Source of the DNA: Candidatus Gastranaerophilales bacterium
GTDB taxonomy: Bacteria > Cyanobacteriota > Vampirovibrionia > Gastranaerophilales > JAQUYY01
Assembly: GCA_028691575.1 (NCBI GenBank)
Contig: JAQUYY010000001.1
Location: forward strand, 1 to 29,871
Length of the DNA: 29,871 nt
Reading direction: 5' to 3'
A program made the translations under genes and the position numbers. The notes under the pieces are model-generated. The model did no database searches. It saw only the letters and a list, made by a program, of their open reading frames with translations, and had not been told where the DNA came from. Positions 22,999-29,583 of this stretch are shown one piece after another. Each line of letters starts with the position of its first letter. Positions within the stretch are counted from its first letter, which is position 1.

Positions 22999-23718
22999 AT
23001 GTTAAAGCGAATGCAGCAATCAAATAATAAATTTGTAAGAAAGCTAGGATTTACTTTAGCAGAAACTCTTATTGTAATAGCAATAATCGGAATAATAGCC
23101 TCAATAGTAACGCCAATGTTGTTTGGCACGACAAGCGATGCTGAACTAAAAGCAGCATGGAAAAAGTCGTATTCTGATTTATCACAAGCAACAATGATGA
23201 TTGTAGCTGATAACGGAGGAACTTTAGCAGGCGCATTCCCTGGAGATGGAGCAGGAGCCGAAGATTTGAAAAATGCTTATGCTTCTAAATTAAACATAAT
23301 AAAAGATTGCTCAGGTACTTCTACCTATGGAGGAACCGGATCAGGAGTAGCGGCGGAAGGTTGTTGGCATTTATATGATGCTTGGTATTTTTTAAATGGG
23401 ACAACAACCGGTTGGACTCAATCTTTTCCCGGTTTGATTCTAAATAATGGAAGTTTAATATATTTTATTCTTAATAAGTCTGATTGTAGTTCTTCCAGAG
23501 GAGATTATGAACGATGTGCGGAAATATATTTGGATGTAAATGGTTTTAAAAAGCCTAATATAATAGGTAAAGATATATTTGTAATGTCAATAACTTCAAA
23601 TGCATTAATACCGTTAGGTGCAAGAGGAGATCTTGAACCATCAATAACATGTGTGGAAGGTTCTACAGCTACTGATAATTATGGTTATGGCTGTTCGGCG
23701 AAGTATCTGTATGAATAA
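22999..23718 (+). CDS. Type IV pilin-like protein, paralogue C (close to A and B)
   Basis: RKLG|FTLAE...; DVNGFKKPNIIGKDIF; ends GCSAKYLYE like A and B; AAGGAG SD. Confidence 0.88.
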   Translation: MLKRMQQSNNKFVRKLGFTLAETLIVIAIIGIIASIVTPMLFGTTSDAELKAAWKKSYSDLSQATMMIVADNGGTLAGAFPGDGAGAEDLKNAYASKLNIIKDCSGTSTYGGTGSGVAAEGCWHLYDAWYFLNGTTTGWTQSFPGLILNNGSLIYFILNKSDCSSSRGDYERCAEIYLDVNGFKKPNIIGKDIFVMSITSNALIPLGARGDLEPSITCVEGSTATDNYGYGCSAKYLYE

Positions 23719-23928: not shown

Positions 23929-25239
23929 CTAAATATCGCCAAATAAATCGTATTCGTTAGCATTTGTTATTTTTACAAATTCAATGTCACCCGGTAATAG
24001 AGATTTTTTTGTGTCAATGTAAACAAAACCGTCTATTTCAGGAGCATCTCGGTATGTTCTTCCTATAATTTGCCCGTCATCTGAAATATTTTCAATAATT
24101 GTCGGAAGTTTTTTACCAATAAGTGATTGATTAATTTGAGAAGAAATATTTTGTTGCAATATCATCAGCTCTTTTTTCCGCTGCTTTTTGATTTTGGCAG
24201 GAACTTGAGGTTTTAGTGAATATGATTTTGTATTTTTTTCTTTTGAATATTCAAAAACACCCATTTTATCAAATTTATTTTTTTCTATAAAATTGTATAA
24301 ATGCTCAAAATGTTTTTCAGTTTCGCAAGGATAGCCGACAATAAAAGCTGTTCTTATTGCTACATCCTTTATATTATCTCTAAATTTTTTAATCATATCG
24401 CTATAATCAAAATCAGGACGATTCATTAGCTTCAAAATTTCAGTATGACTATGCTGGAGTGGAATATCAATATATTTAACAACTTTATCCAAATTTGCAT
24501 ACGCTTTTATCAGTTCATCGTTAAAAAGTCCCGGATAAGTATACATAACACGAATCCAGCTAATTTCTTCAACCTCGTTTAGAGCTGTTAATAATTTTGC
24601 TAAAGACGGTTTTTTGTAAATATCTTTGCCATAGTTTGTAGTATCTTGTGCGATCAAAACTATTTCATTGACACCTTTTGAGCCTAAATATCGAGCTTCT
24701 TGCACAATATTTTCAATAGGTCTGCTGATATAAGACCCCCTTAATTGGGGAATAATACAATATCCGCAGTTATAATCACAGCCTTCGGCTATTTTTATAT
24801 AAGAGCTTGAACCCATTGTGATTTGCTGACGCTCAATTCCTTCTGGATAAATATATTTTGGCTCTGTTGAAATTTCGTTAATAAAATGTGTTTTGTCTAA
24901 TTTTTCAATTACTTCAACAATTTTTGAAATATCAGAAGTCCCAAGCATTGCAAGGGTTTCAGGGATTGCATCGAACAGTTGTTTTTTGTGTTTTTGAGGC
25001 AAACAGCCTGTTATTATAATTTTTTTGCCCTTATTTACCATTTCTAAAATAGAGCGTACTGACTCGGTTTCGGCATCATGAATAAAAGAACAGGTATTAA
25101 TTATGACAATTTCAGCCTTATCAACATTTAAAGTTATGTCGTATCCTGCTTTTGTCAAAAAACCCAACATAAGCTCGGAATCTACCAAATTTTTGGGGCA
25201 ACCATGATTTATTAAGCCAATAACAGGTTTTTTCAACAT
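23929..25239 (-). CDS. rimO: Ribosomal protein S12 methylthiotransferase RimO
   Basis: GCPKNLVDSE, INTCSFI, KIAEGCDYNCGYCIIPQLRG (radical SAM CxxxCxxC), DAPEIDG TRAM domain. Confidence 0.95.
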   Translation of the reverse strand: MLKKPVIGLINHGCPKNLVDSELMLGFLTKAGYDITLNVDKAEIVIINTCSFIHDAETESVRSILEMVNKGKKIIITGCLPQKHKKQLFDAIPETLAMLGTSDISKIVEVIEKLDKTHFINEISTEPKYIYPEGIERQQITMGSSSYIKIAEGCDYNCGYCIIPQLRGSYISRPIENIVQEARYLGSKGVNEIVLIAQDTTNYGKDIYKKPSLAKLLTALNEVEEISWIRVMYTYPGLFNDELIKAYANLDKVVKYIDIPLQHSHTEILKLMNRPDFDYSDMIKKFRDNIKDVAIRTAFIVGYPCETEKHFEHLYNFIEKNKFDKMGVFEYSKEKNTKSYSLKPQVPAKIKKQRKKELMILQQNISSQINQSLIGKKLPTIIENISDDGQIIGRTYRDAPEIDGFVYIDTKKSLLPGDIEFVKITNANEYDLFGDI

Positions 25240-25242
25240 TTT

Positions 25243-25743
25243 TTACCTGTAATTTGTAAACTGCAAAGCAATATCATATTTGTCCTCATTTTCACGAAGC
25301 ATTTTTATAATTGATTGCAATTCATCCTTATCTTTGCCTGAAACCCTTACCTGATCTCCTTGAATAGCGGCTTGAACTTTTATTTTTGAATTTTTAATAT
25401 CAGCAACGATTTTTTTAGCTAATTCAGCTGACAATCCTTTTTTTAATAAAAAAACTTGTCTGACATTTCCGCCAAGGGCACTTTCAACCTTTTGAGCATC
25501 AAGAATTTTTATACTTAAACCTCTTTTCGTTAATTTTGATTGCAAAATATCAACAATATTTTTTAATTTCATATCATCATTTGAAGTAATTGTTATACTT
25601 TTATCAGCTTCTAGATCAACTGTGCTGTTGCTGTTTTTCAAATCAAACCTGGCTGAAATATCCCGATTCGTTTGATCAATTGCATTTACAAGCTCTTGTT
25701 TGTCAAATTCTGACACAACATCAAAACTACTCTCTTTTGCCAT
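25243..25743 (-). CDS. yajQ: YajQ family nucleotide/c-di-GMP-binding protein
   Basis: SFDVVSEFDKQELVNAIDQ, RFDLK, KVQAAIQGDQVRVSGK, LQFTNYR. Confidence 0.95.
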   Translation of the reverse strand: MAKESSFDVVSEFDKQELVNAIDQTNRDISARFDLKNSNSTVDLEADKSITITSNDDMKLKNIVDILQSKLTKRGLSIKILDAQKVESALGGNVRQVFLLKKGLSAELAKKIVADIKNSKIKVQAAIQGDQVRVSGKDKDELQSIIKMLRENEDKYDIALQFTNYR

Positions 25744-25826: not shown

Positions 25827-26501
25827 TTATTTAATTGCTCCTGAGTTAATTAATTCTTTTACTCTTTCCTTAATTTGATTGTGAATTGTATTAATAGTCA
25901 AATTTCCATCAATAGTTATAAAATTAAATTCATGAGCCATTTTTGAATATTCTTCTAAAATTCTTGCTTGATAAATTTTAAAACTTTTATAAAAATCTGT
26001 ACTTAGTCCGATGTCTCTTCCTGATTCATAATAATCCAGTCCTGTTGTGGCAATAATTCTTTTCATCAATGCTTTTACAGGCATATCTAAATAAAAAACA
26101 ATATCGGGAGTCGGTGCAAAATTGTACAAATTTCTTACCCATCCGGGTTTTACCCCTCTTACAACGTCTCTTGCATAGGCAGTATAAGTATATCTATCCA
26201 TTAAAACAATCAAACCCGCTTTAAGTGCCGGGATTATATTTTTTTCAAGCCTATCGGTAAAATCACTGGCGTACAAAAGGCTAAAAGTGTTGGCATTTAA
26301 TAAATTCTTTTCTTTTGCCTGATCAATAGCGCCTGAAATAAGTGCAGAAGTTTTCCATTCGCTAACCATTGCACCGTAACTTTCAACAGCAAGCCAATCT
26401 TTTAATTTATTAATTTGAGTGGATTTTCCAGAACCGTCTGTGCCTTCAATTACAATTAACAATCCGGGATATTCATGTTTTTTTGTATAATTGTTTGTCA
26501 T
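25827..26501 (-). CDS. Thymidylate-kinase-like P-loop kinase, subunit 2 of a tandem pair
   Basis: EGTDGSGKST, SEWKTS, DRYTYTAYARDVVRG, YESGRD. Confidence 0.85.
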   Translation of the reverse strand: MTNNYTKKHEYPGLLIVIEGTDGSGKSTQINKLKDWLAVESYGAMVSEWKTSALISGAIDQAKEKNLLNANTFSLLYASDFTDRLEKNIIPALKAGLIVLMDRYTYTAYARDVVRGVKPGWVRNLYNFAPTPDIVFYLDMPVKALMKRIIATTGLDYYESGRDIGLSTDFYKSFKIYQARILEEYSKMAHEFNFITIDGNLTINTIHNQIKERVKELINSGAIK

Positions 26502-27173
26502 TTATATACTGCACCCTTTTTCTTCAAGTTTTTTTCTTACGATATCTCTAAAAATTACCTGCTGCTCATGTACTGTATTTGTTGCATCTATTTTTATAAG
26601 ATTATATTCATCAACCATTTTATCGTATTCTTCTATAACTCTGTTTTGAAAAATTTTATAACTTTCATATGGATCGGGATTTAAATTTAAGTCCATGCCT
26701 GATTCATAGAATTTTGGCTGTCTGTTAGAACAAATTCTTTCTAAAGAAACTTCAACCGGAACACTAAAATACATTGATAAATCAGGTTTTATGGCAAACC
26801 CGTAAGTATTTCTTACCCATTCAGGCTGAACTCCTCTTGCAACATCTCTTGCAAAAGCAGTAAAAGCATATCTGTCAGACAAAACAATAAATCCGGCTTT
26901 TAGAGCAGGTACAATAACCTGTTCTAACCTATCAGCAAAATCTACGGCATGAAGAAGGCTAAAAGTTCTCGGGCTAAGCATATTTTTCTTTTTAGCTCTT
27001 TTGGTTGTTTGAGAAATCAGCTTAGAAGAATTCCATTCTGTAAAAATAACATCTTGCCCGATATTCTGAAGCCAATCTCTTAATATAGCAAGCTGAGTTG
27101 ACTTGCCGGAGCCGTCAATTCCTTCAACCACTATTAATGTGCCGGGTAAGTCATGATTTTGGTTTAAACGCAT
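26502..27173 (-). CDS. Thymidylate-kinase-like P-loop kinase, subunit 1 of a tandem pair
   Basis: EGIDGSGKST, TEWNSS, DRYAFTAFARDVARG, YESGMD; TAA-ATG junction with the next gene (0-bp gap). Confidence 0.85.
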   Translation of the reverse strand: MRLNQNHDLPGTLIVVEGIDGSGKSTQLAILRDWLQNIGQDVIFTEWNSSKLISQTTKRAKKKNMLSPRTFSLLHAVDFADRLEQVIVPALKAGFIVLSDRYAFTAFARDVARGVQPEWVRNTYGFAIKPDLSMYFSVPVEVSLERICSNRQPKFYESGMDLNLNPDPYESYKIFQNRVIEEYDKMVDEYNLIKIDATNTVHEQQVIFRDIVRKKLEEKGCSI

Positions 27174-27252
27174 TTTTTTGTCCGTTTTTTAAATAAAATT
27201 CTTTAATTTATTTTACTACAAAAATTTGATTTCAAGAGCTTAGTATATTTAA

Positions 27253-27261
27253 ATTATATCA
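27253..27261 (-). promoter_or_regulatory. Extended -10 promoter candidate for the kinase pair
   Basis: TG-A-TATAAT on the minus strand, about 80 nt upstream of the ATG. Confidence 0.45.
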
Positions 27262-27344
27262 AAATATTTGTATTTATTGGTTTTTCATTTCTTTTTCTAC
27301 ATAAAACCTGAATTTAAAAATTTCTTTGTATTCTTGGTGTTTCT

Positions 27345-27407
27345 GTTCATTTTCTTTCTTTTTACCTACTAACAAAAAGAAAGAAAACGAACCAAAAGAA
27401 AGAAAAA
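27345..27407. repeat. Hairpin plus perfect 14-nt purine mirror repeat
   Basis: Y tract 27350-27363 is the reverse complement of R1 27374-27387; R2 27394-27407 is the exact mirror of R1. Confidence 0.85.
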
Positions 27408-27434
27408 CCCAGTAAATCTCTCTATCGTGGTTAA

Positions 27435-27483
27435 ATTAAAGCCTTTAAGCCTTGACGGCTCTACTATTGCCAAAGGCTTTAAT
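27435..27483. repeat. 12-bp perfect inverted repeat with an inner hairpin
   Basis: ATTAAAGCCTTT ... AAAGGCTTTAAT enclosing AGCC-ttgac-GGCT. Confidence 0.7.
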
Positions 27484-27516
27484 GAGTTGAATTACAACTT
27501 AAAATTTATTAATAAA

Positions 27517-28851: not shown

Positions 28852-29583
28852 TTATCGATTTGTAATCCAGGAAGTATTATAGCAAGGCGGACTCATGCAC
28901 CTTGAATACGCAGTATTAATTACAGTATTAAAATCAGGCTGAGGCAATATTTTAATTTGATCGCCAATAACACACGACGAGTCATCTGCAAAACCTAAAA
29001 CGCTATAATCACCTATGTTACAGTTTTTTGTAACAGTTTGCAGAAAAAATCTGTCTTTACCGTACTTATTAGGTTTTTTTAAACCGTTTGTATCGAGAAA
29101 TATTCCATCATTAGCAACAAAAGCAGGATGCATCAATGCCCAACTTCTGCCGGCATTATCTATAAATCCCGGCCAATCACTTGTAGGAGCTCCCCCATGT
29201 TCATGCACTCCATCATAAAGGAAACCTTCATAAATATCTCCGCCGCTGGAATCCCAACATTCTGATAAACTAGAATCTCCTGTATTAATATTGCACGTTT
29301 TTATAACATTAAATTTATTTGCAAAATTTATAAAATTACTTTCTGCTGAAGTCATTGAACCAGTCACAGAAGTTATGCCAATAAGATCTCTATCGGTAAC
29401 TACTTGCATCCAGGCAATTGATGCATCGGCATAAGCTTTTTTATAGGCTGCTTTATATTCTGCATCATTTGTTGAACCAAATAACATTGGCGTAACAATT
29501 GATGCAATTATTCCAATTATTGCAATTACAATTAATGTTTCAGCTAATGTAAAGGCTGATTTTTTCATTTCAAACATTTCCAA
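28852..29583 (-). CDS. Type IV pilin-like protein, paralogue E (start could instead be ATG 29577 or 29568)
   Basis: MKKSA|FTLAETLIVIAIIGIIASIVTPMLFG; DTNGLKKPNKYGKDRF. Confidence 0.87.
   Translation of the reverse strand: MEMFEMKKSAFTLAETLIVIAIIGIIASIVTPMLFGSTNDAEYKAAYKKAYADASIAWMQVVTDRDLIGITSVTGSMTSAESNFINFANKFNVIKTCNINTGDSSLSECWDSSGGDIYEGFLYDGVHEHGGAPTSDWPGFIDNAGRSWALMHPAFVANDGIFLDTNGLKKPNKYGKDRFFLQTVTKNCNIGDYSVLGFADDSSCVIGDQIKILPQPDFNTVINTAYSRCMSPPCYNTSWITNR

Follow-up and report, generated by a model that had tools for sequence, protein, structure and literature searches.

Polyphosphate (polyP) kinases of the PPK3 type have been described from Sulfolobus acidocaldarius, in which the catalytic subunit Saci_2019 (cPPK3) and the regulatory subunit Saci_2020 (rPPK3), inactive alone, form an alpha2-beta2 enzyme, SaPPK3, that strongly favours the direction polyP + ADP -> ATP (Hofmann et al., J Biol Chem 2026, PMC12995831). 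Neither protein has dTMP kinase (dTMPK) activity, and PPK3 constitutes a distinct clade within the dTMPK superfamily whose carriers encode a canonical tmk at another genomic locus and mostly lack PPK1 and PPK2 (PMC12995831). Predicted PPK3 operons carry both a c and an r gene, and the Arg of the DRX motif is replaced in rPPK3 (PMC12995831). The family has been described as occurring in 'a few bacteria'. Here we analyse a stretch of 29,871 nucleotides from a Candidatus Gastranaerophilales bacterium (contig JAQUYY010000001.1, positions 1 to 29,871; hereafter the window), in which two adjacent genes, A and B, are predicted to encode a bacterial PPK3 with A as the catalytic and B as the partner subunit, a reading to which we assign a probability of roughly 70%.

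The locus resembles that of SaPPK3 in that the two genes are adjacent and of the thymidylate kinase (Tmk) fold, with the catalytic type first and the partner type second, and in that both proteins fall in the same clade apart from canonical dTMPK, have the dTMP-binding residues replaced and are accompanied by a canonical tmk elsewhere. PPK1 was found in neither setting. The differences lie in the host, here a mesophilic, AT-rich bacterium, in the surroundings, as the sixA-ppx-...-CHAD operon of SaPPK3 is not matched and PPX and CHAD were not found in Gastranaerophilales, and in an unlinked HD protein, similar to domain III of PPX, that co-occurs with the pair. B itself also differs. It keeps the DRY Arg and, in this genome, the Walker A Lys, whereas the archaeal rPPK3 used for comparison, which comes from a locus of a relative of the Sulfolobales cPPK3 cluster with the order sixA-ppx-c-r, has DGY for DRY and GAGRT for GSGKS. 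The identity of A to B is 53%, measured over 203 residues (E 1e-80); for PPK3 compared with rPPK3, the preprint of the SaPPK3 study gives 22-38% (bioRxiv 10.1101/2024.08.28.610084).

Three further proteins serve as points of comparison. STK_15430 of Sulfurisphaera tokodaii (PDB 2plr, 4nzy, 4rzx and 5h70), deposited as a 'probable thymidylate kinase', has been named as a homologue of Saci_2019 / cPPK3 (PMC12995831). Its alignment with A is full-length, and the two share GIDGSGKS, TEWNSS, a KxAKKK patch, DRY, TAYARD and RG; it differs in being a protein of an archaeal thermophile, not itself assayed in PMC12995831, and in matching B more weakly. Canonical Tmk (TIGR00041, PF02223) shares with A and B the fold, the P-loop, DR(Y/H) and the lid Arg, whereas its TR(D/E)PGG motif is replaced in both and a long branch separates the groups. 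The class II two-domain PPK2 (PA3455 of Pseudomonas aeruginosa; compared in PMC12995831) joins an active kinase module to a paralogous, inactive one presumed to drive oligomerisation, and a natural fusion of PPK3-type c and r modules likewise exists (P0121, 460 aa); class II PPK2 differs in belonging to another P-loop kinase family (PF03976), in being a fused protein and in acting on AMP.

Results

Structure of the gene pair

The pair and its immediate surroundings comprise the following features of the window.

26502..27173, minus strand: gene A, the upstream open reading frame (ORF), 223 aa; predicted cPPK3-like catalytic subunit
25827..26501, minus strand: gene B, the downstream ORF, 224 aa; predicted rPPK3-type partner subunit
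26499..26518, minus strand: gene junction, where the TAA of A (26502-26504) abuts the ATG of B (26499-26501) with a 0-bp gap
27174..27516, minus strand: AT-rich spacer of 343 bp from a tandem-USP gene to gene A; presumed promoter region, from spacing alone

Within A, a Shine-Dalgarno-like AAGGGTG can be read 10 nt 5' of the ATG of B, and the tight junction suggests that the two genes are translationally coupled. The same A-then-B order was found in all 21 loci inspected from the same order, with spacings between -20 and +36 nt, which places the arrangement far beyond chance. A scan of the pair region for sigma-70 promoters and terminators returned sites no commoner than in shuffled sequence. 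The source DNA matched only landfill metagenome runs, all belonging to one study.

Both proteins have an intact P-loop (EGIDGSGKST in A, EGTDGSGKST in B; Walker A GIDGSGKST and GTDGSGKST, respectively) and a DRY motif, and they share the further motifs TAFARDVARG / TAYARDVVRG and YESGMD / YESGRD (A / B). At the position of the canonical TR(D/E)PGG motif, A reads TEWNSS and B reads SEWKTS, so that the dTMP-binding residues are not conserved. A carries a basic patch, K58-R59-A-K61-K62-K63, while the corresponding residues of B are D-Q-A-K-E-K and most of the charge is gone. The original prediction, which had proposed a heteromeric polyP kinase misannotated as thymidylate kinase, described the layout correctly: the 0-bp gap, the intact P-loops, DRY, the replaced TREPG and every motif that it quoted were re-read in the sequence.

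Placement apart from canonical thymidylate kinase

Sequence comparisons place both proteins with PPK3. A matches STK_15430 (2plr/5h70) over its full length at 205 bits (E 9e-60), compared with 61 bits for the best canonical Tmk, and the corresponding scores for B are 171 bits, also over the full length, and 52 bits. A is approximately 43% identical to the archaeal c-type reference sequence. In a maximum-likelihood tree of 116 sequences, canonical Tmk splits from the PPK3-like clade with full support (100/100). At the same time, A and B pass Pfam Thymidylate_kin at about 90 bits and, with scores of 104 and 102 bits, respectively, also exceed the curated cut-off of 83.25 for TIGR00041, the NCBIfam equivalog of dTMP kinase; this explains why orthologues of the two carry 'dTMP kinase' labels in public records.

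The genome contains exactly three genes of the Tmk family, namely A, B and a canonical tmk (G000:C160:8933-9490; 183.5 bits) that has the motif TRDPGG and lies on a contig other than that of the pair. The same three-gene pattern, a pair together with a canonical tmk, was recovered in all five relatives searched. Several elements of the original prediction thus stand. Its statement that Saci_2019 and Saci_2020 form the heteromeric PPK3 agrees with PMC12995831, bit scores and trees assign the pair to the PPK3 clade rather than to canonical Tmk, and the separate TREPG-type tmk that it had suggested looking for is present on contig C160; by sequence, A and B are neither the sole tmk homologues of the genome nor members of the canonical cluster.

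A and B as predicted catalytic and partner types

The original prediction treated A and B as two equivalent paralogues. This view did not hold: trees, the basic patch and a Walker A polymorphism together identify B as an orthologue of the regulatory rPPK3 type. In the tree of 116 sequences, B falls in a clade of 37 rows (100/94) with archaeal rPPK3 and with an unlinked r-like gene from another order of Vampirovibrionia, while A lies outside it with the c-types. Within this r clade the Walker A Lys position is occupied by Arg in 28 and by Lys in 4 of the 37 rows, the patch is acidic or neutral, and the DRX Arg is kept in 35/37 representatives. On the c side, 66 of 70 rows have the Walker A Lys, and only there is the patch at positions K58/59/61/62/63 basic.

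A second data set, in which gene position served as the label, comprised 44 named loci from many phyla together with the Gastranaerophilales lineage. Its 51 upstream and 51 downstream genes lie on opposite sides of a single branch (98/90; 100% of 200 bootstrap trees), A belonging to the upstream group and B to the downstream one. When the melainabacterial copies of A and B were constrained to a single clade, the tree lost 47.8 log-likelihood units, with p=0.0068 in the approximately unbiased (AU) test. On this basis a lineage-specific duplication giving rise to A and B was rejected; in the first data set the test gave p=0.084 and did not reject it. By sequence, the duplication that separated c from r is an old one, and of the r-type branches that of B has degenerated least.

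Orthologues of the two genes are constrained in different ways. Those of A have Lys at the Walker A position in 118 of 119 sequences, an invariant DRY Arg and a conserved patch (K58, K59, K61, K62, K63). Among 119 orthologues of B, the Walker A position is Lys in 55 and Arg in 64, the DRY motif is kept in every one, and the patch positions 58, 59, 61, 62 and 63 read D, D/Q, K, E/D and R. Arg replaces the Walker A Lys in B of four of five related loci, and on the B tree the Lys/Arg state has changed at least four times. The Walker A Lys that B retains in this genome is one state of this polymorphism. A Lys-to-Arg change at this position of the partner is a hallmark derived in the present analysis and is not stated in PMC12995831. 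From the intact P-loop, the DRX Arg and the conserved basic cleft, whose residues are our own assignment, we infer that A is suited to be the catalytic subunit.

Distribution and neighbourhood of the pair

An A-then-B pair is present in 63 of 76 genomes of the same order, the other 13 being nearly complete genomes that lack it. By sample, 25 of 30 same-order genomes drawn from nine families carry it, as do 40 of 50 from a single family. The pair was not found among about 100 other Cyanobacteriota, and one genome of another order in the class has both genes in unlinked form. In public records, orthologues of A and B bear the names Gastranaerophilales/Melainabacteria. The genome with the unlinked genes (G151) carries a c-like gene (L014:1202-1945) and an r-like gene (L015:3114-3797; GVGRTT) on different contigs and, unlike Gastranaerophilales, a full-length PPX-type open frame of 551 aa.

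Beyond this class the family is broad, amounting to 469 clusters at 50% identity (E<=1e-30) in many phyla. Genes of the c type that share 52% identity or more with A were found in Acidobacteriota, Nitrospirota, Verrucomicrobiota, Planctomycetota, Chloroflexota, Bacteroidota, Nitrososphaerota and others. When loci from other phyla were read with a crude ORF caller, a c(Lys)-then-r(Arg) pair was recovered in 48 of 73, and 46 of 48 downstream partners outside the melainabacterial class have Arg at Walker A. Within 4 kb, ppx was present in 37 of these 73 loci; sixA was present in 16. Neither was found near the pair in any of seven melainabacterial loci. Domains similar to cPPK3 also occur inside very large public proteins (P0153, P0155, P0169, P0176 and P0145), some of which carry inorganic pyrophosphatase (InPase) domains, one of these together with ART-PolyVal, typical of polyvalent mobile-element proteins, and others of which combine the domain with an MFS transporter and DUF2252.

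Across the 21 same-order loci, synteny does not extend beyond the pair, and each flanking family occurs in four of them at most. The USP and YajQ genes adjoin the pair only in this window and are absent from 20 related loci; as candidate functional partners they were rejected on this ground, and they lend no support to the stress role that had been proposed from them. The energy-buffer role proposed alongside it would be an analogy drawn solely from the published behaviour of the archaeal enzyme.

In the window, the YajQ/DUF520 gene (25243-25743, minus strand) begins 83 nt 3' of B and is followed after 3 nt by a gene for a RimO-like radical-SAM methylthiotransferase (23929-25239, minus strand). 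Both may be co-transcribed with B here, in an arrangement that is not conserved among relatives. Elsewhere in the window, two ORFs (22999-23718, plus strand; 28852-29583, minus strand) encode proteins of about 240 aa with the same N-terminal prepilin-type methylation motif, FTLAETLIVIAIIGIIASIVTPMLFG.

Other polyphosphate genes

Searches of 30 same-order relatives found no PPK1 (C-domain), Ppx-GppA or CHAD, nor did any PPK2 match exceed the cut-off; Ppx-GppA and CHAD were not found across 31 genomes. Near the pair, none of ppx, sixA, CHAD or pst was found in the 21 same-order loci. Judged from these gene inventories, the pair is apparently the only polyP kinase of the lineage.

The bin from which the window derives holds one PPK2 gene (G000:C129:81-746; L004), the only PPK2 found in the order, on a contig of 2.8 kb. 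Its GC content is 52%, compared with a genome value of 32%; its neighbour on the contig is AT-rich (35%), and the tetranucleotide correlation of the contig is 0.80, compared with a median of 0.94. Given the short contig, the GC content, the tetranucleotides and the absence of a match in relatives, we set this gene aside as a second polyP kinase. It is probably a binning contaminant, although contamination, a chimera and recent transfer are all possible origins of the contig. Of the original prediction's proposed check on ppk1, ppk2 and ppx, the outcome was that no PPK1 or PPX was found and that a single PPK2 turned up on an atypical contig.

Predicted contact between A and B

A structure prediction for A with B gave an ipSAE of 0.51, compared with 0.00 for the best control; three runs agreed in 100% of contacts, and partner pLDDT was at least 84. 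Of 80 solved complexes 58 cleared the pass mark used, as did 2 of 110 mismatched pairs; those clearing it at 0.60 or below were only 7 of the 80, along with both mismatches. As we used our own alignments, these benchmark counts hold only roughly. Dimers of the Tmk fold have already been solved, and the pass may reflect no more than likeness to them. The predicted complex thus gives weak support for contact between the subunits, which natural c+r fusions also support.

An unlinked HD protein as a candidate third component

A standalone HD protein of 202 aa with an intact LLHDIG motif is encoded elsewhere in the genome (G000:C61:10102-10710; L125:3603-4211), unlinked to the pair. Its scores are 80.6 bits for PF21447 (Ppx-GppA domain III) and 41.7 bits for the HD domain, and it aligns with residues 342-482 of exopolyphosphatase 8jgo at 85 bits. 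Its distribution across the 76 same-order genomes follows that of the pair.

Pair present, HD protein present: 58 of 76 genomes
Pair present, HD protein absent: 5 of 76 genomes
Pair absent, HD protein present: 0 of 76 genomes
Pair absent, HD protein absent: 13 of 76 genomes

In one family the HD protein was found in 40 of 40 genomes with the pair and in none of 10 without it, with splits inside two genera. Counted by genus codes, about six contrasts are independent, all in the same direction, in a comparison where related genomes are not independent and no species tree was used. As a control, a separate HD gene of 280 aa was looked for in 31 genomes: 27 have it, among them all five without the pair. 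Fusions in other lineages join c to r (P0121) or join c and r to a module of the Ppx-GppA domain III/HD type whose LLHD(I/V)G is intact (P0122, P0126 and P0128). From these patterns, the HD protein probably works with the pair.

We tentatively extend this to a three-part, ppx-less polyP system comprising A, a nucleotide-competent B and the unlinked HD protein derived from PPX domain III, in which the last would take over the binding or hydrolysis of polyP; this fuller scheme is a possibility that we hold with some doubt.

The HD gene lies 5 nt after a gene for a CheA-like hybrid kinase of 1041 aa (Hpt-HATPase-CheW-REC), and a link to a gene of 933-1052 aa was found in two of six relatives inspected. 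It is also adjoined, on contig C61, by a third copy of the prepilin-motif protein (L125:4271-4966). In one family (f3; L039:3127-6367 and L040), ilvC, the 280-aa HD gene, A and B form a tight array with gaps of 2-6 nt. The 280-aa HD/OB gene upstream of the pair there (L039:4177-5019) was rejected as a specific partner, as it does not co-vary with the pair.

Discussion

The reading of the pair as a PPK3 follows from homology, orthology, gene order, motif conservation and phyletic patterns, and enzyme activity, subunit roles, assembly, stoichiometry and physiological role are all deduced from these. As a PPK3, the pair would be an enzyme of the thymidylate kinase fold that moves phosphate between polyP and ADP/ATP. 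In A, the Walker A Lys and the DRY Arg would form the ATP/ADP site, and the Lys-rich cleft that takes the place of the dTMP pocket would hold polyP. By analogy with the alpha2-beta2 enzyme of Sulfolobus, the most likely role of B is to join A in a complex and activate it; B probably binds nucleotide with little or no catalysis of its own. The two subunits would be made together from one tightly coupled transcript. As searches of the order returned neither PPK1, PPX nor CHAD, nor any PPK2 above the cut-off, the pair may serve both directions, building polyP when ATP/ADP is high and drawing on it for ATP when ATP/ADP is low. PPK3 is an already published family; what makes this case of interest is that no ppx was found around it, that B is less degenerate, and that an HD protein co-occurs with the pair.

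Several observations weigh against this interpretation. The genes that define the published PPK3 neighbourhoods (ppx, sixA and CHAD) are neither near the pair nor found in the order. The PPK2 of the genome's own bin is a possible second polyP kinase, though it may be a contaminant. The first data set did not reject A and B as sisters, and in both data sets the groups compared by the AU test were named after the trees had been seen. The published rPPK3 trait of a replaced DRX Arg is absent from B and from all 119 of its orthologues, and since B in this genome also keeps the Walker A Lys, unlike rPPK3 of the Saci_2020 type, it may be catalytic. Lastly, a PPK3 enzyme has so far been assayed only from S. 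acidocaldarius and from no bacterial member, and A shares only the approximately 43% identity given above with the archaeal c-type sequence.

The last point about B leads to the alternative that survives best, a heteromer of the PPK3 type with catalysis in both subunits, as a two-active-site form less degenerate than the archaeal enzyme. B has an intact GSGKST and DRY, its orthologues keep DRY throughout and always have Lys or Arg at the Walker position, they are 65-78% identical to each other, indicating strong constraint, and their clade is the least diverged branch of the r clade. We nevertheless consider this alternative unlikely: the Lys/Arg exchange has occurred at least four times among B orthologues while A is almost fixed for Lys, the basic patch of B is gone (K58 to Asp, K62 to Glu/Asp, K154 to Asp), and nearly all downstream partners outside the class have Arg.

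A second alternative, that the pair is a Tmk-fold kinase acting on some other phosphorylated acceptor, such as a nucleotide or a nucleotide oligophosphate of the (p)ppGpp alarmone type, and not on polyP, would account for the lack of PPX, CHAD or another polyP gene in the order and of any polyP context among the neighbours. It would also suit the HD protein, which resembles a C-terminal Ppx/GppA domain found also in the pppGpp phosphatase GppA and whose best NCBIfam match is GppA (37 bits). It is rendered improbable by orthology with the assayed cPPK3 clade, by a c-then-r order shared with ppx-linked loci of many phyla, by a conserved Lys-rich patch that suits a polyanion, and by the HD protein itself, whose best structural relatives by sequence are exopolyphosphatases. 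That A and B are redundant or specialised dTMP kinases, as their public names and their passing of TIGR00041 and Pfam Thymidylate_kin would have it, is very improbable given the replacement of TR(D/E)PGG by TEWNSS and SEWKTS, the canonical tmk (183 bits) elsewhere in the genome, the 13 nearly complete relatives that lack the pair, and the absence of dTMPK activity in Saci_2019 and Saci_2020 (PMC12995831).

If the pair is indeed a PPK3, an order that includes the Gastranaerophilales of animal guts would make and use polyP by PPK3 alone, without PPK1, PPK2 or PPX, and the polyP metabolism of Melainabacteria is invisible to standard annotation, as both genes are labelled dTMP kinase. With 469 clusters, PPK3 would also be far wider in bacteria than the phrase 'a few bacteria' implies. 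A mesophilic PPK3 whose partner has gone only half-way to a pseudokinase would be useful for understanding the role of the regulatory subunit, and the HD protein, with its perfect one-way co-occurrence and its fusion to c and r elsewhere, offers a testable third component. Should the three-part system be real, it would constitute the whole polyP metabolism of this lineage, gut Melainabacteria included.

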